Made by a program: the position numbers and the translations under genes. The notes under the pieces are model-generated. The model saw nothing but the letters and a program-made list of their open reading frames with translations, made no database searches and was not told the DNA's origin. 64,000 nt of DNA from Candidatus Binatia bacterium (GTDB lineage: Bacteria; Desulfobacterota; Binatia; UBA9968): NCBI GenBank assembly GCA_036004365.1, contig DASYRN010000045.1, forward strand, positions 7,637 to 71,636, written 5' to 3'. Positions 14,532-44,399 of this stretch are shown piece by piece. Each line of letters begins with the position of its first letter. Position 1 is the stretch's first letter.

Positions 14532-14623
14532 AATTTTTTCACCCACTTTCCGTTTTCATCTTTCCGTTTTTATCCTTTATCCGTTCTTCTTGCCTTGCCG
14601 TAAAGAATCGGCATACTGGCGGT

Positions 14624-16611: not shown

Positions 16612-16624
16612 CTAAGCACTTATC

Positions 16625-16715: not shown

Positions 16716-16722
16716 GTAACCC

Positions 16723-17166
16723 GTGTATTACTTTGCCTACGGCTCGAACATGAACTGGGCGCAGATGAAGCAACGCTGCTCGTCGGCCAGGTTCGTGTCG
16801 GTGGCATGCCTGAAGGACCGCCGCTTTGCAATCACGCGACGATCGCGCCGGCGCCTGTGCGGGACGGCGGATGTCCTTCCTGAACCCGGCAGCGAGGTCT
16901 TGGGAGTCGTCTACGAGATCGATGATTGTGATCTCGGCCTACTCGATGGCTTCGAAGATGGCTACGGCAGAGAAAAGATGTTCGTGGATCCTATCGGCGA
17001 CGGCGGCCGTCGGCTGGAGGCGTGGGTTTATATCGCTGAGAAAGAAACGTATCCCCCGCTTCCCAACGCGCTCTACAAACGGCTCATCGTCGAGGGCGCG
17101 AGGCACTGGAAGCTGCCGGAAGCGTACATCGATATGCTGGAGAAAATCGAGATAGCAATCGAGTAA
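16723..17166 (+). CDS. Gamma-glutamylcyclotransferase (AIG2/GGCT-like) family protein
   Basis: YYFAYGSNM N-terminal signature; GTG start with GGAGG RBS. Confidence 0.8.
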   Translation: MYYFAYGSNMNWAQMKQRCSSARFVSVACLKDRRFAITRRSRRRLCGTADVLPEPGSEVLGVVYEIDDCDLGLLDGFEDGYGREKMFVDPIGDGGRRLEAWVYIAEKETYPPLPNALYKRLIVEGARHWKLPEAYIDMLEKIEIAIE

Positions 17167-17257
17167 AGAGTAGCGAGTAACGAGGAAAGAGTTTAGAGTA
17201 GGAGTTCAGTCCTGTTTGTTACCTCATTACTCAATACTTGCTCCTTGCCCCTTTTGT

Positions 17258-17890
17258 TCACCTCGTTCCAGATGCGCGCACCGTGATCTGCGAGGCGGAA
17301 AGCGAACCGTCGGCTTGAGTCCCCTGGATCAACACCTCGGCGCCGGGCTTGAGCCATCCCGCGTCCCCGAGCACCCGCTTCACGACGGGGATATCCGGTG
17401 GCACAAGGACCTTGATCTCTCCATCCTTGTACTTGAGGGTCAGCATCCGTCCTTTCACGTCCTGAACCGCCACGTCTTCTACGGTCTCGACGTTGGCGTT
17501 CGTCATCGTCAATCCGCTTTGCGGCGCCGAACTCAGCGGTTTATGGCCTTCTCCGGTGCCACGTTGGTCCTCCGAGAATATATGCAATCGGGTGGCGCGG
17601 AACGTACCGTCAGCTGCTTTCGCCGCGGTGACCTCCACGTACATACCGGGTGTGATCTCAGAAAACTTGATTGGAACTTCACCGCGGATAATCGTCTTAT
17701 CCGCTGTCTTAACTTGGACGTCTCCGTTGGGGGCGGCGACGATCAATTCTTGGCCTTTAACAGACGTGATTTTCCCTGCGACGCTGACTGCGCCTTCCGC
17801 TGGACCGACTTGAGCTCGGAGGAGTGAAACCCCTAGGCTAAGGAAAATGGTCGGAAACAGCCAAAGAAAAATCGAAAGTGCAACTTTCAT
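17258..17890 (-). CDS. Secreted protein with two DUF5666-like repeats
   Basis: Signal peptide MKVALSIFLWLF..., two repeats of the G.ITSV.G.EL..A....V.V...T.I.....I.F..I.PG..V.V pattern; AGGAGG RBS ahead of the second Met. Confidence 0.55.
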   Translation of the reverse strand: MKVALSIFLWLFPTIFLSLGVSLLRAQVGPAEGAVSVAGKITSVKGQELIVAAPNGDVQVKTADKTIIRGEVPIKFSEITPGMYVEVTAAKAADGTFRATRLHIFSEDQRGTGEGHKPLSSAPQSGLTMTNANVETVEDVAVQDVKGRMLTLKYKDGEIKVLVPPDIPVVKRVLGDAGWLKPGAEVLIQGTQADGSLSASQITVRASGTR

Positions 17891-17914
17891 CATGCCCTCC
17901 TTCAAGCAGCCTGC

Positions 17915-18010
17915 CTTATCCTTCATCCTTTATCTCTTATCTTTTTTTGCCACGAACACGTATCACGAACACGTTTTTTTCCGTTTTCCGCTTTCATCTT
18001 TCATAATTCC
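17915..18010. repeat. Reverse-orientation short-repeat block (ccttatccttcatcctttatc / cacgaacacgtatcacgaacacg / ccgctttcatctttcat)
   Basis: Direct reading; intergenic between the DUF5666 and lldD-like genes. Confidence 0.55.
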
Positions 18011-18122
18011 ACATTCTCCTTGACCGTTCCTATATGTTAGTCGCCGATCCGGCGCAAGGCATGCTTCCTGCTCCCGGTCTGCCTTGACAGTCGCAGGGTT
18101 TTGGCTTAGACCGGCCCGAAGG

Positions 18123-19178
18123 ATGAAAACGCAAAATCGACCGATCAATCTTTTCGAATTTGAGACCGCCGCCAAGGAGCGCCTACCCAAGGAGGAGTAC
18201 GACTATATCGCCGGGGGTGCGACCGATGAGCTCAGTGTGGAGCGGAATCGCCGCGCCTTTGAGTCGTGGGCTTTGCGCCCGAGGGTGCTGAGGAACGTGA
18301 GCAAGCTTGACCTTTCGACCACGGTGCTGGGCACGAAGGTGAGCCTGCCGGTTCTTATCGCACCCTGCGGCGGGCATAAGAAGGCTCATCCCGAGGGAGA
18401 GTTCGCTACTTACCGGGCGGCGTCTGCAGTGGGGACCATCCTGGCGGTCAGCGCCAATGCAAGCACGAATTTCGAAGAATTAGCGACGGCGGCGGCCGGT
18501 CATCTCTGGATGCAGTTCTATCCTTTTCCGCACCGGGAAATGACCAAAACTTGGCTGCGCCGCGCGAAAGAAGCTGGCTATGAGGCGGTCTGTATGACTC
18601 TGGATTCCCAGTGGCCGCCCAAGCGGGAGCGCAATATCCGAAACAACTATAGAAGAAAGCGCGGAGTCAACTTTCCAACACTCGCTCCTGGGGAGGCCTC
18701 GCCCCAGGGCGGATGCGACCCTGCTGCGACTTGGAAGGATTTAGAGTGGATCAAATCGGAGACCGACCTTCCCGTCGTCGCCAAAGGCATCATGACGGGC
18801 GAGGACGTTGAAATGTGCGCGGAGGTTGGAGCCGACGCCGTCATCGTCTCCAACCACGGCGGCCGGCATCTCGATAACACGTTGGCGACGATCGAGGTTC
18901 TCTCCGAAGCCGTCGTCGCCGCTAAGGGGCGCATGGAGATTCTGCTGGATGGGGGTATTCGACGGGGAGCCGACGTCGTGAAGGCGCTGGCATTAGGGGC
19001 CAAGGCGGTTTTTATAGGCCGTCCGTTCTTCTGGGGTCTCGCCGTGGACGGCGAGCGAGGAGTTGTTCGAGTCTTGGAGATTCTCCGTGAGGAGATCGAG
19101 ATCACCATGGCCAAGTGCGGCAGGCCTACCATTGCGAGCATCGATTCCACTGTGGTGGTCAAGGCGCCGAGGTTGTGA
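18123..19178 (+). CDS. lldD: FMN-dependent alpha-hydroxy acid dehydrogenase/oxidase (L-lactate dehydrogenase / glycolate oxidase family)
   Basis: TIM-barrel FMN enzyme motifs (VSNHGGRHLD, GGIRRGADVVKALALGA); start set at MKTQNRPINLFEF. Confidence 0.85.
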   Translation: MKTQNRPINLFEFETAAKERLPKEEYDYIAGGATDELSVERNRRAFESWALRPRVLRNVSKLDLSTTVLGTKVSLPVLIAPCGGHKKAHPEGEFATYRAASAVGTILAVSANASTNFEELATAAAGHLWMQFYPFPHREMTKTWLRRAKEAGYEAVCMTLDSQWPPKRERNIRNNYRRKRGVNFPTLAPGEASPQGGCDPAATWKDLEWIKSETDLPVVAKGIMTGEDVEMCAEVGADAVIVSNHGGRHLDNTLATIEVLSEAVVAAKGRMEILLDGGIRRGADVVKALALGAKAVFIGRPFFWGLAVDGERGVVRVLEILREEIEITMAKCGRPTIASIDSTVVVKAPRL

Positions 19179-19222
19179 AAAAAAGGGCGTTCAATTGGGT
19201 CACGTTTTTCATAGGAGGCCCC

Positions 19223-19498
19223 GTGACGTGCGCGGTAGAAAGCCGCAAGCGAAGAGGGATGAAGAGCGTATCTTATAAAGGCCACGTCATTGAGCTTGTC
19301 TCGCAAAAGCTTCGGTCCGGAAGATGGATTGCTCGCGCGACAGTGATCATCAATGAAGCGAATACCGTCAAAATGATCCCTATCTTCGGTCGCCGTCGAG
19401 CCAGCTTTGATAACCGGCGGGAGGCCGACGCCTATGCTTTGGAGCTGGCGAGGCTGTGGGTGGAGGGGAGAATCTGGGGAGCGAACGGCCACGGATAG
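19223..19498 (+). CDS. Small hypothetical protein (~79-92 aa)
   Basis: ORF overlapping the lldD 3' end; AGGAGG then in-frame GTG at 19223, or ATG at 19259. No recognisable domain. Confidence 0.3.
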   Translation: MTCAVESRKRRGMKSVSYKGHVIELVSQKLRSGRWIARATVIINEANTVKMIPIFGRRRASFDNRREADAYALELARLWVEGRIWGANGHG

Positions 19499-19524
19499 TG
19501 GAAGTGAGAAAAAGTAAAAGCTCC

Positions 19525-20058
19525 ATGATTCTTCACACCGCACTTACACAATTATCGGCTAATCAGTTCGTAGCCTTGATCTTGGATAACGAAGTGACGG
19601 TTGGCCATTTTGTTACAACTCCACCGCTACCCTGGACCCGTTTGACCCAGCGCAATGGAATCTACCAGGTCGCCAAAGGATATCCGTCTCTTTTGACGAC
19701 CGAGCAAGCCAAGTTCGAGATGAGAAACTGGGATGAGGTTTCGTTGCAGAGAATCATGGGCACGTTGAAAGAGCTGGATGACTCCGTGGATTATGTGCTC
19801 ATCGGAAACAATGCCGGCCAAGGGCTTCCGCTCGCTCAGAGCCTCCCGCAGAACTTAATCGGCAAGCACGCTGCGATCATCTACGGAGAGAGCCTTCCGG
19901 AAATAAAAGAATACGAGAAAACGGGTTATCGAACCTTCTTTCGGAGGAGCAAGGCTGCTTCCCGTCTGCTCGAGCTGACAAAGAGCGCGCGCCGACCTCT
20001 GGCCCTCTTCTTCATCAACACCATCCAACACAACGAGTTCAACTATCACGACCCGTAG
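19525..20058 (+). CDS. Hypothetical protein
   Basis: 178 aa from MILHTAL...; no recognisable motif; start uncertain (GTG at 19456 also possible). Confidence 0.4.
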   Translation: MILHTALTQLSANQFVALILDNEVTVGHFVTTPPLPWTRLTQRNGIYQVAKGYPSLLTTEQAKFEMRNWDEVSLQRIMGTLKELDDSVDYVLIGNNAGQGLPLAQSLPQNLIGKHAAIIYGESLPEIKEYEKTGYRTFFRRSKAASRLLELTKSARRPLALFFINTIQHNEFNYHDP

Positions 20059-20062
20059 TCAG

Positions 20063-20100
20063 AAAGGATGAGGGCGAAAGGATAAGGGATGAAAGTAAGT
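20063..20100. repeat. Purine-rich GGATGA-type repeat block (gaaaggatgagggcgaaaggataagggatgaaag)
   Basis: Immediately after the stop of the 19525-20058 ORF. Confidence 0.5.
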
Positions 20101-20155
20101 TAAAATCGAAAAGCGTGTCGGTTGTAAAGCTGGGAACGGTAAAGACACGACTAAC

Positions 20156-20794
20156 TCACAGTTTCGGAATCCGCAGGGTCTTACTAATCATGGCCGAACC
20201 GCTCACGAGATAGAGCAAGGAGAACGGGTGCCACTGCAGGGAGCCGATTTCGAAGACACCGAGTGGCAGATCGTCGCCGACGCGATCCATATGGAAGCAG
20301 AAAGCGAGCACAATAACGAGCACTAAACTGGAGGGAATTGGCGTTCCCTCGAAGTACTTTACTTTACCACCAAGGTCGGAAAATTCAGCCGCGGTGATGT
20401 TATACCGCGCTAGGCGGCTGATCCCGCAAACCACAAAGAATAAGAGGATAGGGACGTCTAGGCCACCGCGCATCCCCAATCCATAGGCGAGTGCCGTGGG
20501 TGCCACCCCGAAGCTCACAACATCCGCTAGCGAGTCGAGCTCCCCGCCGAAGCATGAATGCTTGTTGCGCCACCGGGCAACCCTGCCATCGGCCACATCC
20601 AATGCAAGAGCGAGCGGGAACAGCCCGACAGCCAAATAAACGCGCCAGCGGTCGGGCGTCACCAAGTAACTCATGATGGCAAAAATCGCCGCGGTTCCCA
20701 CGGCGCCGTTGCCAAGCGTGAGCAGATCCGCCACGTGATAACTGCGCAGCATGGAGAAGTGGACAGGCTTTTTTGGCGAAATGTCATGGTCCAT
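20156..20794 (-). CDS. pssA: CDP-alcohol phosphatidyltransferase (phosphatidylserine synthase-like)
   Basis: D-G-x2-A-R-x8-G-x3-D-x3-D signature present (DVADGRVARWRNKHSCFGGELDSLAD), polytopic membrane protein. Confidence 0.8.
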   Translation of the reverse strand: MDHDISPKKPVHFSMLRSYHVADLLTLGNGAVGTAAIFAIMSYLVTPDRWRVYLAVGLFPLALALDVADGRVARWRNKHSCFGGELDSLADVVSFGVAPTALAYGLGMRGGLDVPILLFFVVCGISRLARYNITAAEFSDLGGKVKYFEGTPIPSSLVLVIVLAFCFHMDRVGDDLPLGVFEIGSLQWHPFSLLYLVSGSAMISKTLRIPKL

Positions 20795-20929
20795 CCAATG
20801 ATCTCCTCTTGGTCTTTTGTGAATCCATAGGACTACGCCAGAGTCGAGAATTCCCGAAGGGTCGAAATGGACGTGCGCCTGTCTTTTGCTAAGCGGTAGC
20901 TAAGAGGCAGGAGAGAGAACGCGAGGGTA

Positions 20930-21244
20930 TTATTTTGATGCCTTCTCGAGTTCGGTTTCACCGGCAATGTAAAATTCACTCTCGCGAAGTTTGATCTGGT
21001 ACAAGGTTCTGCCTTTTCGATAAACATCATCGGACGCATGGGCGGGGAGTTGGCCCACAAACACACCGTCCTTGACCTCTCCCTTTAACGACGGATCATC
21101 CTTCCATCTGACAATGTCTCCTTTTTTAAAGGAAAAGAGAAAAGAAAAGGTCTCGTCAAGCCGCGGGTCGTCGATTTTTATAAAATCCATAACCGATATT
21201 GTGTGGGGTAAAAATTCCTTTGTCAAAGGGGATTCGCCTAGCAA
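20930..21244 (-). CDS. Hypothetical protein in an AT-richer patch
   Basis: 104 aa ORF, no recognisable domain; local GC clearly below the window average. Confidence 0.35.
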   Translation of the reverse strand: MLGESPLTKEFLPHTISVMDFIKIDDPRLDETFSFLFSFKKGDIVRWKDDPSLKGEVKDGVFVGQLPAHASDDVYRKGRTLYQIKLRESEFYIAGETELEKASK

Positions 21245-21290
21245 GAACCGCGGAATCAGCCATTAACGATCGCGCTGAATACGGCTGACA

Positions 21291-21310
21291 TTTGTTGAGA
21301 ATTCTTACGC
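21291..21310. repeat. Degenerate copy of the palindromic element (TTGTTGAGAATTCTTACG)
   Basis: Shares TGAGAATTCT; intergenic, upstream of pqiA. Confidence 0.4.
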
Positions 21311-21446
21311 ATTGGCCAGAATTGTCATTTTGGACGATCTTCGTTCCATTTAAACCACTATGAGTGCGATTCTTAACTTCACCCAAAAGACCGCAAATCC
21401 TTTAAAAAACCGCGTCTTGTGTTGCTAAGCTAAAGATTGGCATGGA

Positions 21447-22118
21447 TTGTGCTACATCTTTTCCGCTCTTGTGGGGGGTCGAAAGAGTAAAGCAGACCTC
21501 GAAATTTTAATGGAAACAATCATCGCCTGCAAAACGTGCGGCCTGGTGCAGCGCATGGAGGAAGTCCAGTCGGACATAGCGGCGGAGTGTTGTCGCTGTG
21601 GGTCGATCATCGGCAAGCTCAACGTCAACAGCCTCGCACGCACGGCAGCGTTCTCGCTAGCCGCGCTGATTCTTTACGTACCGGCCAATATCTATCCGAT
21701 TCTCCATATGAATTATTACGGCGTGTATTCCGAAAGCACTGTTTGGGACGGCTGCGTGAAACTCTTTCGGGACGGCCAGTGGCTGGTGGCCGTGATCGTT
21801 TTTCTCGCCAGTATTTTGATTCCACTTTTAAAACTGCTCGGGCTTTTCTATTTGGTCGTCAGCGCGAAATTCAAATCCGCGCGTCAGCAGCAGGAACGGA
21901 CTTGGATTTACAAGACCATCGAAGTGATCGGTCCATGGGCAATGCTCGACGTCTTCCTCCTCGCGGTGCTCGTGGCGTTGGTCAAGCTGCAGCAGATCGC
22001 TACCGTCCTCCCTGGTCGGGGGCTCTTGGCGTTCACCGCCATGGTGGTGTTGACTATTTTGGCTTCGGCCAGTTTTGACCCGAGGTTGATTTGGAACGAA
22101 ACGGATGAAGAGTCATGA
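21447..22118 (+). CDS. pqiA: Paraquat-inducible protein A family membrane protein (single PqiA domain)
   Basis: N-terminal CxxC...CxxC zinc-ribbon-like segment followed by PqiA-type TM helices; directly upstream of an MCE/PqiB gene. Confidence 0.75.
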   Translation: MCYIFSALVGGRKSKADLEILMETIIACKTCGLVQRMEEVQSDIAAECCRCGSIIGKLNVNSLARTAAFSLAALILYVPANIYPILHMNYYGVYSESTVWDGCVKLFRDGQWLVAVIVFLASILIPLLKLLGLFYLVVSAKFKSARQQQERTWIYKTIEVIGPWAMLDVFLLAVLVALVKLQQIATVLPGRGLLAFTAMVVLTILASASFDPRLIWNETDEES

Positions 22119-23032
22119 GCGATTTGCAAAAAAATGCTGAAACCACCGAAGAGTTGCCCAAGGCAAAGGTCAAGATAAAGAGATGGAACTTTCCCGTCGT
22201 CTGGATTGTTCCCGTGATTGCCGCCATTGTTACAGGCTATCTTGTTTACGATCGCGTGCAGGAGTTTGGTCCGAAGATCACGATCAGGTTCAAGAACGGC
22301 AGCGGCCTTAAGATCGGCCAAACACCAATTAAGTATCGCGGCGTGCAGATTGGCGAAGTGACGGCGGTTGAATTGAGCGACGACCAGCAGAACGTGCTGG
22401 TGAAGGTACGACTGCGCCGCTCGGCGGCTTCCATTGCCCGGGAAGGAGCGGTTTTCTGGATCGTGCGTCCCGAAATGGGACTTTCAAACATCGCTGCCTT
22501 GGGGACGGTCATTACCGGACCGGAGATTGCGGTATTGCCGGGCACTGGCAAGGACCAAGCAGAATTTGTGGGTCTGGAGAGTTCGCCGGTGGTAGTAGAA
22601 GGTAATGAGCTGAAGATCGTTCTGGTCTCCGGCCGTGCCGGGTCATTGATAGCGAGTTCGCCGGTTTACTATCGGGGCGTCGAGGTAGGCACCATCCAAG
22701 ATATTCAGCTCAACAACGACGCCCGCACGGTGAACATCCACGTGTTCATCAAGCAGCGGTATGCGAACCTGGTCCGGAGCAGCTCGAAGTTTTGGAATGT
22801 AAGTGGCGTGGATGTGAGCATCGGCTTGTTCCGCGGCATGGAAATCAATATGGAATCGCTGAGATCGCTGGCGGTCGGGGGAATCGCCTTTGCCACCCCG
22901 AACGATCCAAAAGGCAAGCCGGCGAAGGACGGGATGGTATTTCCCCTTCACGACAAATCGAATAAGGAATGGTTGGAGTGGGCGCCGAAGATACCGATTC
23001 CACGGGAGAAACAGTTAGAGAAGTCGAGATAA
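22115..23032 (+). CDS. pqiB: MCE-domain protein (PqiB/MlaD family)
   Basis: N-terminal TM anchor then MCE domain; 4 nt overlap with pqiA. Confidence 0.8.
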   Translation: MSDLQKNAETTEELPKAKVKIKRWNFPVVWIVPVIAAIVTGYLVYDRVQEFGPKITIRFKNGSGLKIGQTPIKYRGVQIGEVTAVELSDDQQNVLVKVRLRRSAASIAREGAVFWIVRPEMGLSNIAALGTVITGPEIAVLPGTGKDQAEFVGLESSPVVVEGNELKIVLVSGRAGSLIASSPVYYRGVEVGTIQDIQLNNDARTVNIHVFIKQRYANLVRSSSKFWNVSGVDVSIGLFRGMEINMESLRSLAVGGIAFATPNDPKGKPAKDGMVFPLHDKSNKEWLEWAPKIPIPREKQLEKSR

Positions 23033-23352
23033 GTTCGATTAGCGGCGGATCTGTGTCCAGCCTGATAGGACCTATTTCCCCTTGCGGTAACACAACACGC
23101 ACCGATTTTTTGCAGTCCTAATTCCTTGCACCTGGGTGAATATTACCCTTCTTGACAGCTTGATCTCTCTCAAATATCGTCAAGCTATCATTCTTCAAGA
23201 TTAGTATTCGGTGGTATGAGTGACGGCCGAATTTTTTTTGCTTTAGGACTGCATCGTAGGTGGTCAGTGGAAATTTCCGCGGATAGAAACGGCCGAAAAC
23301 AAAAAATGAGCAGAACAACGGAATCCACATTGAATTAGTTGAGGAGGTAAAA

Positions 23353-23604
23353 ATGCCACTTTTTATGGACATCCACAGGAAAGCAGACGGAATAACGTCC
23401 CAAGCGCTCGCCGAGGCACACCGTAAGGATCTTGCCGTGCAGGGAAAGCACGGCGTCAAGTTCGTCAACTACTGGTACAATGAAGGCGAGGGCGCGATTT
23501 TTTGTTTGTGCGAAGCTCCAAGTAAAGAGGCGGCTGAAGCGGTACATCGCGAGGCTCACGGTGAGTTAGCAGACGAAATCATCGAGGTTAAAGAGGGGTC
23601 GTAG
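23353..23604 (+). CDS. DUF4242 domain protein
   Basis: 83 aa, MPLFMDIHRK... typical DUF4242 start; strong RBS AGGAGGT. Confidence 0.7.
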   Translation: MPLFMDIHRKADGITSQALAEAHRKDLAVQGKHGVKFVNYWYNEGEGAIFCLCEAPSKEAAEAVHREAHGELADEIIEVKEGS

Positions 23605-23791
23605 CAAGCTGAGGGAGCCATGAAACGATCCGCAGGTTCTTCGATCACCCACAGAAAAGCGGTCAGCCCTTGAAAACATGAATTCTGCTTTGCTGAGGCT
23701 GCGCTGGCACGAGGCCGGTTGATCGAGTATCCGAGCATCCTGAATCGATTCCGGGTTTCCGAAGCCCTTCCCTGTTTCACCGCCGTTCAAC

Positions 23792-24025
23792 ATGACCCTT
23801 TGCAATCACACAACGCTCGAACTGTTACCTGAAAAGAAAAAAAGAGTGCGGTGCCGGCACTGCCACCTGATCCTAGACGGCGAGGAGCTGGGAGATGGCT
23901 ATTGCCCGGAATGTTTTGAGACGTCCGGCAAGAAGCAATATGACTTCGAGGATATGGAACCCGAAAGGGGAGGGGTCGCCCGCTACAGATGCGAAGAGTG
24001 CGGTGCCATCGTTGAAAGCGCGTAG
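23792..24025 (+). CDS. Small zinc-ribbon protein (two CxxC pairs plus CxxC)
   Basis: 77 aa with CRHCH...CPEC and CEEC motifs. Confidence 0.5.
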   Translation: MTLCNHTTLELLPEKKKRVRCRHCHLILDGEELGDGYCPECFETSGKKQYDFEDMEPERGGVARYRCEECGAIVESA

Positions 24026-24137
24026 TAAACTACTTGGCGCTACTGTGCCATTGAGTTTGTCTCGGACAAACTGTGATCAGGAGGACGGGTTCACAGATCA
24101 GTCAGGCAGCAAAAACCGCATGGCGAACAAGGATCAG

Positions 24138-24299
24138 TAGCTTTCCACCGGTGATTGGGGGCGGATCTCTCCTGTGATCGGATCTTCACCCTCAACAGGT
24201 GGCCCGCCTCGCTTTTTCTCTGCCTTGCGCTGCTGGCGGCGAGCGACCTTTTCTATTTGCTTCTGCCGGCGCGCCATCTCCTTCTGGCGTTTCATGTAA
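24138..24299 (-). CDS. Small basic protein (53 aa), not in the ORF track
   Basis: Hand translation of the minus strand: MKRQKEMARRQKQIEKVARRQQRKAEKKRGGPPVEGEDPITGEIRPQSPVESY. Basic N-terminal half, acidic C-terminal half; weak GGGAAA SD. Confidence 0.3.
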
Positions 24300-24383
24300 G
24301 TTTGATTTCCCATACGGATAGATTAACACATACCAAAGGCAACAGGAACCGCCTCTTCAAAGAAAGCCGCGTTAAAGTATAAA

Positions 24384-24415
24384 GGGGCGTACTGATCTAC
24401 GCCCCTTTTTGCTTA
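24384..24415. terminator. Bidirectional rho-independent terminator hairpin
   Basis: GGGGCGTA-ctgatc-TACGCCCC stem-loop followed by TTTTTG on the + strand, preceded by an A-rich run, so it can serve the minus-strand RRM gene ending at 24432. Confidence 0.55.
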
Positions 24416-24431
24416 GATTCTACAAGATAGG

Positions 24432-24746
24432 CTACCAGCGGTCGCGCCTGCCACCTCCACCGCCACCCCTTCTATCCCCACCGAACCCTGACCGCTTCTC
24501 CTGAGGCCGCGCCTCATTGACAGTGAGATTGCGCCCGTCGAACTCGGTTCCGTTCAGAGCCTGGATCGCTTTCTGGGCCTCCGCGCCGGAGCTCATCTCG
24601 ACAAAACCAAAGCCCTTGGACCGGCCGGTGAATTTGTCGGTGATCACCCGGGCGGATTCGACGGTGCCGTGCGCCGAGAATAGTTCCTCGAGCTGCTTGT
24701 CGGTGGTCGCGTAGGACAATCCACCTACGTAGACTTTATTCGTCAT
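24432..24746 (-). CDS. RRM-type RNA-binding protein with Gly/Arg-rich C-terminal tail
   Basis: RNP motifs VYVGGLSY and KGFGFVEM; RGG tail; AGGAGG RBS 5 nt upstream of ATG at 24746. Confidence 0.85.
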   Translation of the reverse strand: MTNKVYVGGLSYATTDKQLEELFSAHGTVESARVITDKFTGRSKGFGFVEMSSGAEAQKAIQALNGTEFDGRNLTVNEARPQEKRSGFGGDRRGGGGGGRRDRW

Positions 24747-25306
24747 GTTCTCCTCCTTTAGAAAAATGTTAGTGTCTTTCACCCTGGAATCTGATTACCG
24801 CGGGAGCAGAACATGGGGTTGGAACCCAGCGCTGGCCGGATTATCCTCCAAGGTAATACTTCGCAAGGAAAGACTCCCCCCGAGCCTTAAACTTTTATCT
24901 GTCTCACTTTCAGAAGGCCCCATACTGAAGTGACTTTAGCTTGTCTTGTTTGCCCTCTCGGTGCAACGGAGCCGGGCGCGTCCTTTATCGTGCAGACGAC
25001 GGCTCGACACGAGCCCAAGTCACTATCATTCTAGGGTCGTCCGACGCAAGAGGTAGGCGGCGCGCAAGAAAACGTTGGAACAGAATGCGCAAAGAGGCCA
25101 AGAGCTTTTTGAGCGATATAAAGGGGTGTAGGAAGCCTCCGATAGTGCCTATTAATGTCGTGTTAATGGAAGGGGAGGTTGGGTCCTCCAGGAACCAAGC
25201 ATGCTTTATGAAACGCGATCGTATCCTTTCGATGGTGGTCTCTGGGTCCGACCAGCACCTAAGGCGCATCGACTCCGGAAGAATTATTTTAACCAACCGG
25301 CGACCG

Positions 25307-25322
25307 TTTGAGAATTCTCAAG
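25307..25322. repeat. Copy of the TTGAGAATTCTCAA palindromic element (TTTGAGAATTCTCAAG)
   Basis: Perfect 14-bp palindrome in the long intergenic region between the RRM gene and the XRE regulator gene. Confidence 0.7.
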
Positions 25323-25613
25323 AAGGTCAAAATGAACAAACGCGTCAAAGATGACGTTTTTGCAATTGCGAGAGTACGAAAATGTGGTTTGAAGCCTGTC
25401 TAGCGGATCTTCTTTTATAAACGCAGTGGATGTCTGTCAAGTAGGAAAAAGGAAAAAAGGGGAGGATTTCCGAAATATCCAAAAAGCCGCGATCGTGGTC
25501 GTGAAATGTGATCAGGCAGCAGGCCGCGTTGGCGGAATAGCAAGGCAACCGATTTAATCGAGGTTTAAAAAAAAAGCTTGACAGCCCGCGCGACCGCGAT
25601 ATACCTAGGTCCC

Positions 25614-25901
25614 ATGACCGGCATGGAACTCATAAAGCTCAGAAAGCGACTGTCTATGACGCAAACCAGTCTCGCCCGCGCCGTCGGAATGAAGAGAAAA
25701 TCGGTCATTCTCATGGAGCGGGGAGAGGAGCCCATCTTAAGGACCACCGAGCTGTCGGTGAGGCTGCTGCTGCTGAAGAAGCAAGCTGCGAGGTTCGTAT
25801 TGCGGATAAAAGGGAGAAGACGCTATAGGCCCCGGCCGCGGCAAAACGGAGCTTCACTGTCAGAAATCTTGTCGCATCTTTCTACAGATAGACGGGAATA
25901 A
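25614..25901 (+). CDS. XRE-family helix-turn-helix transcriptional regulator
   Basis: LIKLRKRLSMTQTSLARAVGMKRKSVILMERGE is a Cro/C1-type HTH; start uncertain (25578/25614/25623). Confidence 0.5.
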   Translation: MTGMELIKLRKRLSMTQTSLARAVGMKRKSVILMERGEEPILRTTELSVRLLLLKKQAARFVLRIKGRRRYRPRPRQNGASLSEILSHLSTDRRE

Positions 25902-25989
25902 TCCTGACTGGCTTGAGGAGAAAAAAAAGAGACAGGCCATTTTTTCGTTGAAAACGGAAAGCTGACAACGGAAAAAGCTGCCAGCGTTT

Positions 25990-26229
25990 TCATTCCTTTC
26001 GGGCCTTTTCTCCACTTTCCCGTATTCTCTTACCGGCCTCTTTCATTGCCTCGCCGGCTTTTTCCATCGCTTGACCCGTTTGTTCCTTGGCCTTCTCCAT
26101 TGCTTGATCGACAGCCTTGCCCGTTTTTTCCATAGCACCTTTATCGTCTTCGGATTTTGAGCAGGAGCCCAAGGCAAGCGCAGACAGTCCGACGAGCAAT
26201 GCCAGGCACACGTTTTTGATCAGCTTCAT
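25990..26229 (-). CDS. Small lipoprotein with AMEKxG repeats
   Basis: Signal peptide with lipobox LALGSC; four repeats of the ...QAMEKAKE.../...EAMKEAGK... type; GGAGGG RBS. Confidence 0.55.
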   Translation of the reverse strand: MKLIKNVCLALLVGLSALALGSCSKSEDDKGAMEKTGKAVDQAMEKAKEQTGQAMEKAGEAMKEAGKRIRESGEKARKE

Positions 26230-26384
26230 TTGTCGGTTACCCTCCTCGTCCAAGTCTTAGTCTAATCCCTATAATAAAAACTCTTGGCACACAAGAAAGG
26301 TTTCTTGACAATCTGGAAGGTTGCGGAATGGGTTGGTTCTCTTAATGTCACAGGGGTTAAAATCCCGTCGGGATGCCACTGGCA

Positions 26385-26666
26385 TCAGTCGGATGCCTTT
26401 GGTTTCGGCGGCCCCGGATATCGGGTAGCAGCCTGGTTTGAAAAGCCATCTAATGCGGCGAGTTGACGCGCGAGGTCGAAGATGGTGTTCTCGATGGCCA
26501 TCCTGGAGGCCTCAATCTCATCGAGCGTTGATCGCGCTATCCCTACCGCTTCCACGAGCTTTACTCCCTCGGGCCGCCTTGCCAGTATCGTGAGACGGTA
26601 ATCGGCCTGGAAAACGCGCCAGTTGAGATAGACGCTTCGCACCTCAGCCTGTAGGTCTGAGGACAT
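26385..26666 (-). CDS. Hypothetical protein, possibly a remnant
   Basis: 93 aa ORF with no RBS and no recognisable domain; sits next to a degenerate region. Confidence 0.25.
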   Translation of the reverse strand: MSSDLQAEVRSVYLNWRVFQADYRLTILARRPEGVKLVEAVGIARSTLDEIEASRMAIENTIFDLARQLAALDGFSNQAATRYPGPPKPKASD

Positions 26667-27091
26667 ATACCGGATCGAAACGGGAGCAGCGGGATCGTCC
26701 TCCAGGACGTAGAAAAGCGCCCGGCCGACGTGGTACTCCCCCCACTTAACTCCGGAGTATCGACACTTCCCACAGCTCGGCGAGAGCCGGATCGACCTGC
26801 ACCTTTACCCTTCGCTCTGGCGGAAGCTGGTAGCGCTGGTCGAAGAGGACCGTTTGGCCTCAGGCGCCAAGCCCGAGCGAAAGGAAAAACAAAGTGAAAA
26901 GGGAGGTCTTGCTCATGAGACGATCTGCAATTTCTTAGCATCTCTCCTAAAAGAGTAAAAGCCCCCGCAAGATAAAGGATGAAGGATAAGGGAAAGATGC
27001 TCATAAGACAGCGGACTTTCGGGGCCGTTCAAAGAATTTTGCTGGTGGCCACATCGAAGCTGTGCTATGTTGGTATGAAATTTTGAGAGCG

Positions 27092-27793
27092 ATGCGAAAG
27101 ACAGGTTTTGCTGCGCGAGATTTTCTCTTCTCGTGCCGATTGATTGTTTTCTGCTTATTTTCTCTATCTTGCTCTATACCCCCGAAGATTCCCACAGTTG
27201 CCGATGAGCGGCTCGAGGCCATGGTTAGAAATGAGGCCTCCGAGATCATAGAAGTGACCCCGGATAAAGAGGAGCTTTCTCGGTATCAGATTTTTCTGTC
27301 AGCCTTTCCCCGGAAGGATATATTAGGAGTGAGTGTCGGGAACCGTCGTATTTATATCAGTTATGAGCTGGTACAACTCGCGTTCAACAGTCCCCGCTAT
27401 CGTTGGCTGCTGAGGCAGACCTTGGCCCACGAGATTGCGCATGAAATAGCGGGGCATGCGAAAGATAGGCGAGTTGTCTCCTACAGTCCTTTTACGTTCG
27501 GCCGCGGCGTGACAGGCGGAGATATCGGCCTTCCGTCGAGCGTGCGATTCCATCATTATTCGGCGGAAAAAGAACTGGAGGCGGATTTAAACGGAATGAA
27601 GTACTGGAGAAAGCTTCAGTGGGACTGCCGGATCTGGGTGCGCATCTTGAGGCAATATTTTCAGATCAACTACACGGGCGATATTTTTCATCCGACAGAC
27701 GAGCGCCTAAGACAAGCATTGAGCGTGTGCCTTCCAGAGTCAGATCCGGAGCGGATCGCTATAGAGAAGAGACTCGAGGCAGTGAGGAGGTAG
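27092..27793 (+). CDS. Putative secreted zinc metallopeptidase (HExxH motif)
   Basis: Hydrophobic N-terminal signal; LAHEIAHEIAGH contains HExxH; 233 aa. Confidence 0.55.
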   Translation: MRKTGFAARDFLFSCRLIVFCLFSLSCSIPPKIPTVADERLEAMVRNEASEIIEVTPDKEELSRYQIFLSAFPRKDILGVSVGNRRIYISYELVQLAFNSPRYRWLLRQTLAHEIAHEIAGHAKDRRVVSYSPFTFGRGVTGGDIGLPSSVRFHHYSAEKELEADLNGMKYWRKLQWDCRIWVRILRQYFQINYTGDIFHPTDERLRQALSVCLPESDPERIAIEKRLEAVRR

Positions 27794-27819
27794 GCAGGCC
27801 GATCTAAGAAAGGTACAAA

Positions 27820-27930
27820 GGCCCGTGCTCGTGATCGTGAAACGTCATCGTGACTAAAGACAAGGATGAAGTATAAGGGATGGAAGCAGAAAAAGAAGTG
27901 GACGTGATCGCGACTCGTGTGCGTGGAAAC
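27820..27930. repeat. Composite short-repeat block: CGTGATCGTGAA-type units flanking GGATGAAG/GGATAAGG purine-rich units
   Basis: cgtgctcgtgatcgtgaaacgtcatcgtgac ... aaggatgaagtataagggatggaag ... gacgtgatcgcgactcgtgtgcgtgg. Confidence 0.6.
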
Positions 27931-27952
27931 TTAGCAGACGCCTTGTGTGAGA

Positions 27953-28348
27953 TTATTGCTCTAAATCGGAAGCTCTCACCCAGCCGACAGCACCCGTCGA
28001 ACTCTTAACCATATACCACAGTCCGCTGCTACCAGCCGCCTTAGCCATTACTGTAAGCGTGTCTCCTCGCTCCAGTTTAGCGACGAGCGGTGAATACTCG
28101 TCCTGGCGGGCGTAGAGATGGACCTCGCTCTGCTTGACCGCGAGGAGAGCGGAGACCGGCGCCTGTGATCCTGCCGGAGCGTTGACGGAGTGTCTGTTTG
28201 CAGCAGGACTCCTCGTGTTTACCCCACGGCGGCTCTCCTTTAGAGCTCCGGTTTGTTTTCCGTATTCGAAGATGGCTTGAGCATCGCTTCTCTCGGCCAT
28301 AACCATGAAGAGCATGGGCACCCAAACCACGGCTAGCACGTGCTTCAT
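27953..28348 (-). CDS. Secreted SH3 (SH3b)-domain protein
   Basis: Signal peptide; C-terminal ...ARQDEYSPLVAKLERGDTLTVMAKAAGSSGLWYMVKSSTGAVGWVRASDLE is typical of a bacterial SH3 domain. Confidence 0.6.
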   Translation of the reverse strand: MKHVLAVVWVPMLFMVMAERSDAQAIFEYGKQTGALKESRRGVNTRSPAANRHSVNAPAGSQAPVSALLAVKQSEVHLYARQDEYSPLVAKLERGDTLTVMAKAAGSSGLWYMVKSSTGAVGWVRASDLEQ

Positions 28349-28379
28349 AGCCTCCCAATTATAGTCGCGAGAGAAGGTC

Positions 28380-28700
28380 GCCGCAATTCAGTGAGCGGCA
28401 CGGACAAGAGATGAGGGATGAATGATAAAAGATAACGGATGAAGGATCGAAGCGGAAAGAGGAAAAGAGAAAGAGAAAAAAGACCTGATCGGATTCGTGC
28501 TCGTCATCGTAAAGGAACAGCCTTGACACGTTTTCGGCCTTCGAATAGGTTAGTTTTGGCCAAGTCGTTGATCCTCAAGAGACGTGCACGTGTTCGAGAT
28601 TCGTGTTCGTGTAAACTTGCACGTTTTGAGAATTCTCAAAGCTTCGAAAAGCGCCACGATCGTCTTCGTGGAACGTGATCGTGAACAAGAACTGATGCTG
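28380..28700. repeat. Large composite short-repeat block (purine-rich GGATGA units, then several CGTG(A/T)TCGTG units) also holding a palindromic element copy
   Basis: gagatgagggatgaatgataaaagataacggatgaaggatcgaagcggaaagagg ... ttcgtgctcgtcatcgtaaagg ... cgtgttcgagattcgtgttcgtg ... cacgatcgtcttcgtggaacgtgatcgtgaac. Confidence 0.6.
28624..28639. repeat. Copy of the palindromic element (TTTGAGAATTCTCAAA, perfect 16-bp palindrome)
   Basis: Located between the SH3 gene and the S1/P1 nuclease gene, embedded in the CGTGATCGTGAA-type repeats. Confidence 0.7.
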
Positions 28701-28870
28701 TTATCACTTTTACGATTGCGCAAGTGCGCAAATGAGAAAATGTCCCAAGGCGCGAGCCTTGAGGTATGAGGACAAAAGGTGAGGATGATTCAGGAGGAAC
28801 GATAGCGGAACAAGGGAAAACGGCGGGGAGAAGAGGCTGGAGAGACCGGATAATTTTTTCTACGAGGAAG

Positions 28871-29686
28871 ATGGCGGCAACAAACCGCACCCGGAGAATT
28901 AAGGGAGTGGTTCGGGTCTGCGGGCTGTTCTTCCTGTACGATCTACTTGCTGTTTCCCCCGGTTTTTCCTGGCATGACAAAGGCCATCGCGTTGTGGCGA
29001 TCATCGCCCAGGCGAATCTCACCCCGGAGGCCAAAAAACGGATTCAGGAGATAGTACCTTCAGGCACCACTCTCGCCGACGCAGCCGTCTGGCCGGACTA
29101 CGAAGGGAGAAAAGTGGGAGATTTGGATCCGCTCCACTACGTCAGTATTTCCGACGGCGCCAACGGCTACGATCAAGCGCGTGACTGTCCGGAGAAAAAC
29201 TGTATGGTTGAAGCACTCAAGTGGTTTTCATCGAACATCGCCGACGAGAATGCCCCGACCGTCATGAGACGAATCGCTCTGCGGTATGTCGCGCATCTGG
29301 TCGGTGACCTGCACCAGCCGCTGCATGCGGGCAGGGCAACGGATCGAGGCGGCACGGATATCACGGTGACGTATAGAAGACAGACGACCAACCTGCACTT
29401 CTTTTGGGATAAAGACTTAGTGGAGATGGAAGAAGGAAACGCAGAGGAGGTAGCTGAGCGGCTTGGGGCGAGCCTTACTGAAGAGGAACGTCTTAAATGG
29501 CGGGCGGGCGACCCGAAACAATGGACTGATGAGTCGCTCGTGCTTGCAAGATCCTATGCGTACCCTATAGGGGGATCCTTTGAGCTTTCTGACGACTACG
29601 TAGAAAGGGCCCGACCGATTGTGCGAGTAAGGCTTGTTCAGGCTGGGATAAGATTAGCATGGTTGCTGAACATGGCTTTCAAATAG
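28871..29686 (+). CDS. S1/P1 nuclease family protein (secreted)
   Basis: WHDKGH near the mature N-terminus and HLVGDLHQPLHAG zinc-binding motifs; start set at the ATG after GAGGAAG. Confidence 0.85.
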   Translation: MAATNRTRRIKGVVRVCGLFFLYDLLAVSPGFSWHDKGHRVVAIIAQANLTPEAKKRIQEIVPSGTTLADAAVWPDYEGRKVGDLDPLHYVSISDGANGYDQARDCPEKNCMVEALKWFSSNIADENAPTVMRRIALRYVAHLVGDLHQPLHAGRATDRGGTDITVTYRRQTTNLHFFWDKDLVEMEEGNAEEVAERLGASLTEEERLKWRAGDPKQWTDESLVLARSYAYPIGGSFELSDDYVERARPIVRVRLVQAGIRLAWLLNMAFK

Positions 29687-30321: not shown

Positions 30322-30675
30322 AATCCTCCTCCTCGAGATTTTGGTGCAAGGGCTTTTGCCCGAGACAGCTGACGCGATGCAAGCGATATACCAAGGGCCA
30401 GAATAATTAAACCGTGGATTGTTAAAGGGATTGGAAGTTCGGCTCTTCTGACACGGTCCCTAATTGTTATGGAAAGGCCTAAATTGTACCGTCAAGTAAC
30501 TTGATCGTTGTCTAAGAGGAATGGGATCCTCGTCTTGATCTTGGATTCTTGAGCCAGGTCACCCGGTCTGCCATGTGTATCTTGGCGATCCAAGAAAGGG
30601 ACGAGGCAAGAGGTGATAGGCGATAGTTTTTAGTCGCTCTCGCAACTATTGTATATTATAACATGGCTCTCGCGT

Positions 30676-30691
30676 TTTGAGAATTCAAAAA
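30676..30691. repeat. Degenerate copy of the TTGAGAATTCTCAA palindromic element (TTTTGAGAATTCAAAA)
   Basis: Direct sequence comparison with copies at 25307, 28624 and 36153. Confidence 0.6.
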
Positions 30692-30746
30692 TGTAAAAAC
30701 GAGTTAATGATGGAATCTTGCCCTATACGATTGTAACATTGGATAG

Positions 30747-30895
30747 GACCGAATTGCCGGCTTGATGACTTCCTATGGATACGCGAATATTCTCCACGCC
30801 GGTTTCTGCGCCTTGGAGCTTCTTGAATGGGAAGTCGATCAGGTTTTGGGCGTTGGGCCTTTCACGTCCGCCGAATTGCGCGCCGATCGTTAGCA
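30747..30895 (+). pseudogene. Duplicated 3' fragment of the yciI-like gene (no start codon)
   Basis: Translates to RIAGLMTSYGYANILHAGFCALELLEWEVDQVLGVGPFTSAELRADR*. About 85% nt identity to 36021-36117, the 3' end of the intact yciI-like gene (…GFCAFELFEWEVHQVLGVGPFTSAELRAHR*). Confidence 0.6.
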
Positions 30896-30941
30896 GTTGG
30901 AGATTCACATCTTCGGCGGAAGATTTGAGAAGGAGGTATCC

Positions 30942-31031
30942 ATGTTGGCCATTCTTCCCCCGCTGATAATGATTCTTCTCGTAGCTCTTATTTTCTATCT
31001 TGCCTGGTGGGACGCTAACAGACGTAAGTAG
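30942..31031 (+). CDS. 29-aa hydrophobic small peptide (MLAILPPLIMILLVALIFYLAWWDANRRK), not in the ORF track
   Basis: AAGGAGG with a 5 nt spacer then ATG; single predicted TM helix and a basic C-terminus; lies just downstream of the yciI fragment. Confidence 0.4.
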   Translation: MLAILPPLIMILLVALIFYLAWWDANRRK

Positions 31032-31155
31032 AAGTAAAAAGGCGTTGGGACAGCCATTGTGCGTCGGGCAATTCAATCGGAGCTAACGTTGAGGACGCAA
31101 AGCAGCACAAAGTGGCCGAGTTTATCACCGAAGGTAAGACAAGAAAGGAGAATCT

Positions 31156-35666: not shown

Positions 35667-35808
35667 GTTTTGCCTCCTTTCCTCAGGATCCGAACGTTGC
35701 GTTCGAGGTTCCTTGTCGTGATATTTTATCAGGATTCAAGGCTCGCTCCAGGGGTAGGCCCGCTAAGGGGTAAAGGATGCAATAAACTATAAAAGCTAGG
35801 AGGACAGC

Positions 35809-36117
35809 ATGTGGTATCTGATCCATCGTAAGCCCATACGACCGCGTGAGGAATGGACCGTGAGTCTCGACGAGCATCTTGTCTGGATGAAACAGCAGCA
35901 CGAGGCCGGCCGGATCCTTTTTTCCGGCCCGACCCGGGATCGCACGTTGGGGATTTACGCGATACGCGCCGGCTCCAGGGAAGAAGCCGAGCGGATCGCC
36001 GGCAGCGATCCTTACACGAAGGCCGGTTTCTGCGCTTTCGAGCTTTTTGAGTGGGAGGTGCACCAAGTTTTGGGCGTCGGGCCTTTCACGTCCGCCGAAT
36101 TGCGCGCCCATCGCTAG
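35809..36117 (+). CDS. yciI: YciI-like (Dabb/YciI family) small protein
   Basis: 102 aa; RBS AGGAGG; YciI-like pattern (...RILFSGPTRDRTLGIYAIRAGSREEAERIAGSDPY...). Confidence 0.8.
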   Translation: MWYLIHRKPIRPREEWTVSLDEHLVWMKQQHEAGRILFSGPTRDRTLGIYAIRAGSREEAERIAGSDPYTKAGFCAFELFEWEVHQVLGVGPFTSAELRAHR

Positions 36118-36152
36118 CGGTCTACAAGGAGCTCAGAAGAGCACTTTCACCG

Positions 36153-36168
36153 TTTGAGAATTCTCAAG
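36153..36168. repeat. Copy of the TTGAGAATTCTCAA palindromic element (TTTGAGAATTCTCAAG)
   Basis: Perfect 14-bp palindrome 36 nt after the yciI stop, between convergent genes. The flanking ~30 nt are nearly identical to the copy at 25302-25331. Confidence 0.7.
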
Positions 36169-44383: not shown

Positions 44384-44399
44384 GGCGAATTTTCCCTTC

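Follow-up and report, generated by a model that had tools for sequence, protein, structure and literature searches.

Tandem repeats of a seven-nucleotide unit have been known from bacterial intergenic DNA since 1990 and, to our knowledge, none of them has an established function. Those named STRR consist of 7-nucleotide (nt) tandem units at many intergenic loci, in both orientations, with inverted pairs that sometimes form stem–loops. As a class, heptamer repeats are documented as over-represented between bacterial genes (PMC4692102, PMC4679880), examples being STRR in Calothrix and Nostoc, GGGGAYT in Nostoc and GGGAATC in Xanthomonas (PMC4692102). The Xanthomonas unit occupies ∼180 intergenic loci per genome as perfect and degenerate copies, for which slippage was proposed (Rehm et al. 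2015, PMC4692102); it includes some inverted pairs and keeps the same gene neighbours in related species (PMC4692102). Another unit, TAACTGA, is found in marine Beggiatoaceae, cyanobacteria and Bacteroidetes (MacGregor 2015, PMC4679880), and S1, Csp and CsrA were proposed as its binders. Here we describe arrays of degenerate 7-nt units (GGATGAA, GGATAAG, CGGAAAG, GATGAAA) and 6-nt units (CGTGNN) that stand in tandem between the genes of one 64-kb stretch of a Candidatus Binatia genome (contig DASYRN010000045.1; hereafter the window), and that we read as a new family in this class rather than as regulatory RNA or a mobile element.

The arrays are present at 12 or more sites and are confined to intergenic DNA. 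In the window, which has 54% G+C, the double heptamer RGATRARRGATRAR matches at 11 places, where dinucleotide shuffles predict 0.04. Of the 11, 10 are intergenic, and five stand on the + strand and six on the − strand. The 17-mer AAGGATGAAGGATAAGG occurs at five sites with at most one mismatch (six with up to three) against 0.16 expected, CGTGNNCGTG has 12 matches against 1.46 expected, nine of them inside previously listed intergenic blocks, and GGATGAA is enriched 5.8-fold in intergenic DNA. Tandem Repeats Finder assigns the purine blocks a period of 7 or 14 (both periods being found among 14546, 15734, 16678, 17977, 20062 and 28410) and the CGTG blocks a period of 6. In a test free of prior assumptions, nucleotide autocorrelation over the entire intergenic DNA (9.3 kb) is highest at lag 7 (0.283 versus 0.256 in shuffles, z = 6.1) and is raised at lag 14 too; coding DNA shows a period of 3 only, and the lag-7 signal is absent from it. 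Particular unit orders also recur: the 22-nt core AGATAAAGGATGAAGGATAAGG is identical at 22/22 positions at 17914–17935 (−) and 26970–26991 (+), several other pairs of loci have 21–27 nt in common at 89–95% identity, and a sub-family B, GATGAAAGCGGAAAnCGGAAAGATGAAA, connects 15731, 17978, 14547 and 25951. Since the block sequences are identical across 5–7 independent metagenome assemblies from different samples, they are not assembly artefacts. An initial annotation made from the letters of this DNA had described these blocks as intergenic repeat families in both orientations, and that description is borne out: every site that it listed bears the described sequence, and the possibility that it left open, of low-complexity artefacts, does not apply to blocks that are intergenic, enriched over shuffles and identical across assemblies. 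Further sites beyond its list lie at 17975–18012, 25951–25974 and 25435–25470.

The arrays are clustered, occurring in ∼10 of the 19 spacers at 14.5–28.8 kb versus 2 of ∼32 elsewhere (manual count), and other spacers of the window bear different heptamers (AACTCAA, CGAGTAA, TTTGCAT). In all seven composite sites (7/7), the CGTGNN hexamers and the purine heptamers stand on the same strand. The gene map behind these counts was made from crude open reading frames (ORFs) corrected through exact-protein look-ups to 5–7 metagenome contigs of the same population, whose gene calls and Pfam hits cover ∼5–52 kb of the window. After correction, 14013–14531 (+) is ilvN, and 14624–15727 is the gene for a PQQ-dependent sugar dehydrogenase (GSDH); for GSDH and for the S1/P1 nuclease, the closest homologues come from metagenome-assembled genomes (MAGs) with the label ‘Candidatus Binatia’ or ‘Deltaproteobacteria’, and the window is therefore taken as part of the chromosome of an uncultured Binatia-type bacterium. 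No tRNA genes were found in the window. C-free or G-free runs and a generic detector of purine blocks were set aside as too unspecific, because they also catch Glu/Lys-rich coding stretches.

We assign the arrays to the heptanucleotide class because the 7-nt tandem unit, the many intergenic loci and the two orientations are all found here. A tandem 7-nt unit at many loci is likewise described for STRR of heterocystous cyanobacteria and GGGGA(C/T)T of Nostoc PCC 7120 (PMC4692102). The Binatia arrays differ from STRR in their unit and in their host, which is not a cyanobacterium, and they are short (2–6 units) and degenerate where STRR are long and perfect. With Xanthomonas GGGAATC they have in common one heptamer at many intergenic loci, perfect beside degenerate copies, an inverted pair and unchanged gene neighbours in related species (PMC4692102). 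However, the Xanthomonas repeats vary widely in length between close species, whereas no unit-number change is seen here at 3–10% neutral divergence, and they are G-quadruplex candidates, which the Binatia arrays, with G runs of GG or GGG only and 5-nt spacers, by reasoning are not. A role as G-quadruplex or triplex DNA was rejected on the same kind of reasoning, as the G runs are too short and T breaks the purine tracts. The likeness to TAACTGA extends to stop codons within the heptamer, 2–6 copies, intergenic abundance and a patchy spread across phyla without an evident transfer mechanism (PMC4679880), but TAACTGA lies mostly in one orientation right upstream of start codons, whereas the Binatia arrays have mixed orientations and varied positions. 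The literature library searched has no relevant paper with GGATGAAGGAT in this context. The earlier descriptions of the repeats as an unclassified system and as genome-specific both have to be given up, the former because the arrays fall in the described class of intergenic heptanucleotide repeats (PMC4692102, PMC4679880), the latter because arrays with the 17-mer core also occur in Verrucomicrobiae, Thermoguttaceae and ‘Deltaproteobacteria’ MAG contigs. What is special to this genome is the density of the arrays and their association with CGTG hexamers. For the class, the uncultured phylum Binatota, represented here by a soil bacterium, is a new host lineage.

The purine strand resembles small RNAs (sRNAs) of the CsrB/RsmZ type in its several closely spaced A(R)GGAUGA-like GGA motifs. 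The initial annotation had noted this likeness and had argued that the two orientations speak against such an sRNA, which our results support. There is no discrete sRNA gene, the arrays are only 20–80 nt long and lie on both strands, and because the blocks fold to 0 kcal/mol their GGA motifs do not sit in hairpin loops. No promoter or terminator brackets the arrays in 13.8–29 kb, the stretch scanned for terminators, and covariance models of CsrB, CsrC and RsmX/Y/Z had no match. Rfam gave 0 matches at the gathering threshold on the window and no relevant matches at E ≤ 5 on 14400–28900, and the six-frame translation of the 64-kb window holds no CsrA-like signature. The suggestion of a REP/BIME-like or MITE-like element fared worse. 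REP/BIME sequences of Enterobacteria and Pseudomonas are also short, high-copy and extragenic, and REPs often lie near gene 3′ ends and form stem–loops when paired; however, they are imperfect palindromes of 20–40 nt with fixed length and conserved ends, mobilised by RAYT, whereas the Binatia blocks are tandem 7- and 6-nt units with one inverted pair and without palindrome or fixed ends. When the copies are aligned, neither target-site duplications nor terminal inverted repeats come to light and the ends stay undefined, and no Y1/RAYT or other transposase is present among the Pfam-annotated genes at ∼5–52 kb. Such arrays could be taken wrongly for CsrA sponges or MITEs, and they mislead gene callers, which place ORF starts or stops inside them (e.g. 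26561–27004, 28439–28678). A coding role of 26967–27000, as the N-terminus of a 147-aa ORF, was rejected as this ORF is not conserved in the relative L230.

The position of the arrays relative to genes is mixed. The initial annotation placed them directly after stop codons, which holds at 15728 (0 nt) and 20063 (4 nt), where the purine strand is the sense strand, as it also is 63 nt past a stop at 27856. It fails elsewhere: blocks lie upstream of start codons (16666, 17914) and between divergent genes (26967, 28402). It is the pyrimidine strand that comes after the stops of the ilvN, EcsC-like and PrpD-like genes and of three genes on the − strand, at a distance of 14–18 nt for the 14545 and 45157 blocks. 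Read from the gene maps, the C-rich strand is sense in six gene 3′ flanks and the G-rich strand in five. This even orientation speaks against every role that depends on which RNA strand is made, such as a CsrA sponge or Rho loading. In the pyrimidine orientation, composition and lack of structure would suit a rut site, but the C-rich strand lies past a gene in only 6/11 cases, and for want of an orientation bias a Rho-loading role is not favoured.

The arrays are also unstructured. Strand asymmetry is strong, one strand being nearly free of C and the other nearly free of G, and solo blocks taken as RNA from either strand have a minimum free energy of 0 kcal/mol, while whole spacers containing blocks have fold z-scores of 0 or above. 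For 12 of the 14 window blocks there is no pairing partner, and in no block except the 44405/44461 pair is pairing better with the downstream than with the upstream 200 nt. This single hairpin-forming pair corresponds to the 11-bp inverted repeat that had been reported at 44407–44490; the repeat exists, at the corrected positions 44406–44416 and 44478–44488, but its MITE-like reading is not supported. The flanks TTTTAG and AGTTCT are not duplicated as a target, the window has no second copy of the 83-nt inverted-pair unit, and the fold of 44396–44500 is no better than that of shuffles (z = −1.0). Other low-complexity spacers of the window do form significant imperfect hairpins (10953–11043, 13929–14012 and 17167–17257, z = −2.7 to −4.4), built from the units AACTCAA, GTTTCGG/GAGT and CGAGTAA; one such hairpin lies inside the ilvB–ilvN pair, where the antisense strand folds better.

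Terminator-like sites in 13.8–29 kb are at chance level (20 versus 19.3 expected), and none of the arrays themselves is called by the terminator scan. Two arrays merely lengthen the T-rich tail of a separate hairpin (14514–14540, 25961–25985). An array stands directly upstream of two of the four convincing promoter-like sites; a UP-element or promoter-proximal role was rejected on this count and because arrays also lie between convergent genes. One of the promoter-like sites, TTGCCT-16-CATACT at 14590–14626, stops 6 nt short of the GSDH start codon. The site is conserved in the relative L100 (4640–4680) and suggests that GSDH is transcribed as a leaderless mRNA. Since this predicted promoter would leave GSDH leaderless, the upstream array would fall outside the mRNA, and for that reason long-range pairing between the arrays flanking GSDH was dismissed. 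L100, whose GSDH is 87% identical, shares the leaderless promoter (TTGxxT-16-CATACT-7-ATG), but where the window has its upstream array L100 has another low-complexity tract, also rich in pyrimidines. At the stop of its GSDH gene stands a short purine block.

Outside this genome the arrays take a different form. A metagenome scan with the real 17-mer core only matched at least 120 contigs (G+C 0.32–0.77), and among the matches listed ∼54 are heptamer arrays, ∼30 lie in an IS481-type transposase and some are isolated coding matches. Carriers among these matches, named by exact look-up of genes ending at the arrays, include Verrucomicrobiae, Thermoguttaceae (Planctomycetota; two contigs) and a ‘Deltaproteobacteria’ MAG. 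The listed arrays are typically the 5′ arm of a stem–loop: the median duplex energy is −19.6 kcal/mol with the downstream 150 nt versus −13.3 kcal/mol with the upstream 150 nt, values of −18 kcal/mol or lower are reached downstream in 35/54 and upstream in 8/54, and exact inverted partners lie downstream in 9/9. In 15 of the 43 listed intergenic arrays the purine end abuts the stop of a same-strand ORF, which the pyrimidine orientation never does (P = 6e-5); many of these arrays start at the stop codon or within it, so that the codon often belongs to the array. GGATGAA arrays in other taxa thus follow stop codons, where TAACTGA precedes starts. They are also ∼17 times sparser, as the motif is found at three further sites in 324 kb of the listed contigs versus ∼10 in the 64 kb of the window (0.09 versus ∼1.6 sites per 10 kb), and they are not associated with CGTG hexamers in the other taxa listed.

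The scan, which used the real core only, suggests but does not prove that GGATGAA/GGATAAG is over-represented across phyla, which would be the second case, after TAACTGA, of one heptamer common to distant phyla. Plain motif density over 85 loci was uninformative, as composition alone gives AT-rich genomes high scores; even a single GGATRAR dimer is present in only 3 of 80 labelled genome loci (∼1.3 Mb), from three other lineages. Setting the stop-abutting hairpins of other taxa against the dense solo arms of this genome could help to ask whether such arrays are selected 3′-end elements or by-products of slippage. A phage origin was rejected, with the core in only seven viral contigs and an array in one of them. 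The ∼30 transposase matches were rejected as arrays, as the N-terminus MKDKAS... holds the 17-mer by chance. In this IS481-type (rve-domain-like) gene the 17-mer lies at the start codon (MKDKASS/WV...; L122 2100–3330, and e.g. L115, L134, L140); the gene is preceded by a conserved terminal sequence, TGTAGGAGTACAATACATATTGGACAG. The element turns up in metagenomes of the human gut and elsewhere and has no relation to the arrays.

Comparison with relatives indicates how the arrays evolve. The syntenic relative L101 is 97% identical, with 7.3% divergence at fourfold-degenerate sites. Of the positions compared with it, 6/195 differ in the blocks, ∼28/576 elsewhere between genes and 79/1083 at fourfold-degenerate sites. 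The arrays change about as fast as the rest of the intergenic DNA, and on these counts (P = 0.01) the blocks are not hypervariable and perhaps mildly constrained. In contrast, the low-complexity hairpin at 17167–17257 is fully remodelled in L101, though still of low complexity. The relatives L229 and L230, 6–19% diverged at fourfold sites, retain the arrays at 26967–27000, 25951–25974 and 28583–28612 but lack an ∼85-nt segment (28628–28712) that holds a CGTG array and a palindrome. More distant Binatia-like loci (∼70% protein identity) carry other heptamers (CTGACCA, ATAAGCC, GTTCAAG).

With a probability of about 0.5, we propose that the arrays arise by slippage, that their unit orders spread locally by recombination, and that they persist as unstructured spacer DNA which is occasionally co-opted. 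They would be born and remodelled through slipped-strand mispairing, and recombination or gene conversion would carry particular orders, such as the 22-nt core, from one spacer to others nearby, which would account for the clustering at 14.5–28.7 kb. In this genome they would have no sequence-specific or strand-specific RNA function and would act as unstructured spacers between transcription units. Single arrays may have been co-opted as a stem–loop arm (44406/44478), as a T-rich tail behind a terminator hairpin (14514–14595, 25961–25990) or as the DNA that immediately precedes a −35 element (14590, 28523). Several observations weigh against this proposal. Independent slippage does not explain why the same 17–22-nt unit order stands at five loci of the window, nor why it recurs in three other phylum-level lineages. 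Unit-number changes, which classical slippage-prone repeats would show, are absent from the same-population contigs, L101 and L229/L230, although with few relatives this is a weak test. The blocks differ from L101 at 3.1% of positions versus 7.3% at fourfold sites (P = 0.01), and the 26967–27000 array is identical to that of L230 at 31/31 positions while its flanks differ, which together hint at some constraint. The constant strand of CGTG hexamers and heptamers (7/7) suggests one composite unit or a shared compositional constraint, and the evidence comes from 64 kb of one genome.

Because slippage and local copying leave the recurring unit order and the missing unit-number polymorphism unexplained, we keep three rival explanations. 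In the first, which we regard as unlikely, the arrays would be platforms at gene boundaries that titrate or recruit a single-strand nucleic-acid-binding protein (candidates being CsrA, an RRM-type Rbp, ribosomal protein S1 or a cold-shock protein, through the motifs AAGGAUGA/AAGGAUAA in unstructured RNA) or the anti-Shine–Dalgarno tail of the 30S subunit. ARGGAUGA resembles RUACARGGAUGU, the CsrA consensus from systematic evolution of ligands by exponential enrichment, and AAAGGA would be able to pair with the 3′ tail of 16S rRNA. The blocks are fully unstructured and GGA-rich, an RRM_1 protein is encoded in the window (24432–24782, − strand), the unit recurs across phyla, the purine strand abuts same-strand stops 15 times in the listed metagenome arrays and the pyrimidine strand never, and the same idea was put forward for TAACTGA (PMC4679880). 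However, the purine strand is sense at only about half of the window sites, the GGA motifs lie outside hairpin loops, neither a CsrB/RsmZ-type Rfam match nor a CsrA-like signature turned up in the window, and any binder is a candidate only. The downstream partners and stop-codon positions of the metagenome arrays would instead fit a 3′-end element, whose ancestral form would be a stem–loop right past the stop, made of purines in its 5′ arm and of pyrimidines in its 3′ arm and acting as terminator or mRNA stabiliser; most copies here would then be half-sites, U/C-rich tails or C-rich, G-poor Rho-loading tracts. One such hairpin is present in the window (44406/44478), pyrimidine heptamers follow the terminator-like hairpins at 14514–14540 and 25961–25985, and as canonical terminators are not enriched another 3′-end signal is plausible. 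This explanation is nevertheless unlikely, as 12/14 window blocks are partnerless at 0 kcal/mol, the 44396–44500 fold is unremarkable (z = −1.0), several blocks lie upstream of starts or in divergent promoter regions (16666, 17914, 26967, 28402), and the C-rich strand is not favoured downstream of genes (6 versus 5).

GGATGAA/GGATAAG arrays could also be a conserved cis-element of Binatia, Planctomycetota, Verrucomicrobiota and ‘Deltaproteobacteria’, a stop-codon stem–loop with the purine arm first that couples translation termination to the formation or stability of the transcript 3′ end and whose solo arms have here been expanded and partly repurposed. We consider this unlikely; if it were so, the conserved machinery reading it would be the terminating ribosome, through anti-Shine–Dalgarno/AAGGA pairing, or a protein of the RRM or CsrA type. 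The third rival, in which the blocks are what is left of a small non-autonomous mobile element built from CGTG and purine-heptamer modules and dispersed by a transposase encoded elsewhere in the genome, would explain the near-identical 21–27 nt at separate loci, the 46 nt that are 80% identical over both modules, the constant module orientation (7/7), the regional clustering and the ∼85-nt indel relative to L229, which carries a CGTG array. This origin is very unlikely given that the alignment of copies shows no element ends, that array length and unit order differ at each site, that palindromic REP structure and a transposase among the Pfam-annotated window genes are lacking, and that the heptamers occur without the CGTG module in other taxa. 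Chance low complexity or an assembly artefact, for which one can cite the purine-rich composition of Glu/Lys-rich coding stretches, is of negligible probability in view of the shuffle tests, the 22/22 core at two loci, the 5–7 identical assemblies and the conservation in two diverged relatives.

Each array has its own setting. The one at 14545–14595 (−; CGGATAA AGGATAA AAACGGA AAGATGA AAACGGA AAG), identical in L101, lies between the terminator-like hairpin and T-run of ilvN (14514–14540) and the −35 element TTGCCT of the GSDH promoter at 14590. At the other end of that gene, a sub-family B array at 15729–15771 (+; GATGAAA GCGGAAA TCGGAAA GATGAAA TGAAAGG) begins at the first base past the GSDH stop and is unstructured (minimum free energy z-score +2.0). 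A CGTGNN array at 16630–16660 (−), reading CACGAT/CACAAA on the + strand, stands 18 nt past the EcsC-like stop with one substitution relative to L101, followed at 16666–16712 (−) by a heptamer array (reverse complement AGAATAAAGGATGAAGGATAAAGGATAGAATCGAAAGAG) that is 92% identical to 26972–26997 and ends 4 nt before the GGAG Shine–Dalgarno sequence of the GGACT gene. Three arrays then adjoin on the − strand: heptamers with the 22-nt core at 17914–17948, close upstream of the start of the DUF5666 gene, CGTGNN units at 17950–17975 (CACGAACACGTATCACGAACACG on the + strand), and at 17975–18012 a sub-family B array (reverse complement GAAAGATGAAAGCGGAAAACGGAAAAAA), missing from the initial annotation and 95% identical to 15731–15751. 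The array at 20061–20100 (+; AGAAAGGATGAGGGCGAAAGGATAAGGGATGAAAGTAAGT; minimum free energy 0) begins 4 nt past the stop of the gene at 19456–20058, between convergent genes. A purine run, AGGAAAAAGGAAAAAAGGGGAGGA, and then a CGTGNN array, CGCGATCGTGGTCGTGAAATGTGATC, occupy 25435–25512 (+). The sub-family B units at 25951–25974 (+; AAAACGGAAAGCTGACAACGGAAA) are conserved in L230 and, on the − strand, supply both stem and T-rich tail to the terminator-like hairpin that follows the gene at 25990–26253, while the array with the 22-nt core at 26967–27000 (+) occupies a divergent intergenic region.

The stretch 27795–28765 shows a succession of arrays. After a gene stop at 27793, CGTGNN units at 27824–27854 (+; CGTGCT CGTGAT CGTGAA ACGTCAT CGTGAC), heptamers at 27856–27902 (+; AAGGATGAAGTATAAGGGATGGAAGCAGAAAAAGAAG; minimum free energy 0) and again CGTGNN units at 27903–27926 (+; CGTGAT CGCGAC TCGTGTG CGTGG) follow one another between convergent genes. 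Beyond a 131-aa gene (−) at 27953–28348 comes the longest purine block, 28402–28484 (+), with ∼6 heptamers (consensus GATGAAG) and then an AAGAGGA/AAAGAG run, and after it a CGTNNN array at 28490–28515 (+; CGGATT CGTGCT CGTCAT CGTAAA) that ends 7 nt before the promoter-like TTGACA-17-TAGGTT at 28523–28551, a site conserved in L229. There follow CGTGNN units at 28583–28612 (+; CGTGCA CGTGTT CGAGAT TCGTGTT CGTGTA; conserved in a relative), the palindrome TTTTGAGAATTCTCAAA at 28624–28640, a CGTGNN array at 28654–28686 (+; CCACGATCGTCTTCGTGGAACGTGATCGTGAAC) within the ∼85-nt segment absent from L229, and a conserved purine-rich leader that precedes the probable nuclease start near 28871. This leader (28713–28870, ∼160 nt) is ∼95% identical in L229 and thus better conserved than the nuclease gene at its fourfold-degenerate positions, of which 16% differ, and some gene callers take it for an N-terminal extension (306 aa versus 267–271 aa). 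The remaining arrays stand apart. The hairpin-type copy has its 5′ purine arm at 44405–44441 (+; outer stem AAAGGATGAAG at 44406–44416) and its 3′ pyrimidine arm at 44461–44492 (−; CTTCATCCTTT at 44478–44488, then TTTGCCACGAAAAC, as at 17914–17959), the latter with 80% (46 nt, across both modules) and 95% identity to other loci. A short array at 45138–45157 (+; AGGGATGAAGGATGAAATGC) presents its pyrimidine strand 18 nt past the stop of the PrpD-like gene on the − strand.

The palindrome at 28624–28640 belongs to a motif, (G)TTTGAGAATTCTCAA(A), which we call D2 and which recurs in spacers at 36152–36167, 30675–30690, 25306–25321, 51958–51974 and 20844–20860 (also 21295–21312). It lies upstream of the nuclease gene and of two small paralogous genes (30723–31076 and 35683–36111, both −), and from its sequence looks like the operator of a putative transcription factor; the 36152 copy is conserved in L229, and the 28624 copy lies within the ∼85-nt indel. 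The ends of the two paralogous genes form a 100-nt direct repeat of 87% identity (30798–30897 and 36022–36121), with a D2 palindrome after each. The leader of the RRM_1 gene (∼190 nt; 24783–24960, −) is 82% identical to that of its ortholog in L100 (6882–7090), which has different neighbour genes. Autoregulatory 5′ untranslated regions are known for cyanobacterial rbp genes, and by analogy this leader may be one. Finally, the segments 56075–56124 and 63885–63934, separated by 7.8 kb, form a 50-nt inverted repeat (82% complementary) that encloses the last genes of the window and may mark where a mobile or rearranged segment ends on either side.

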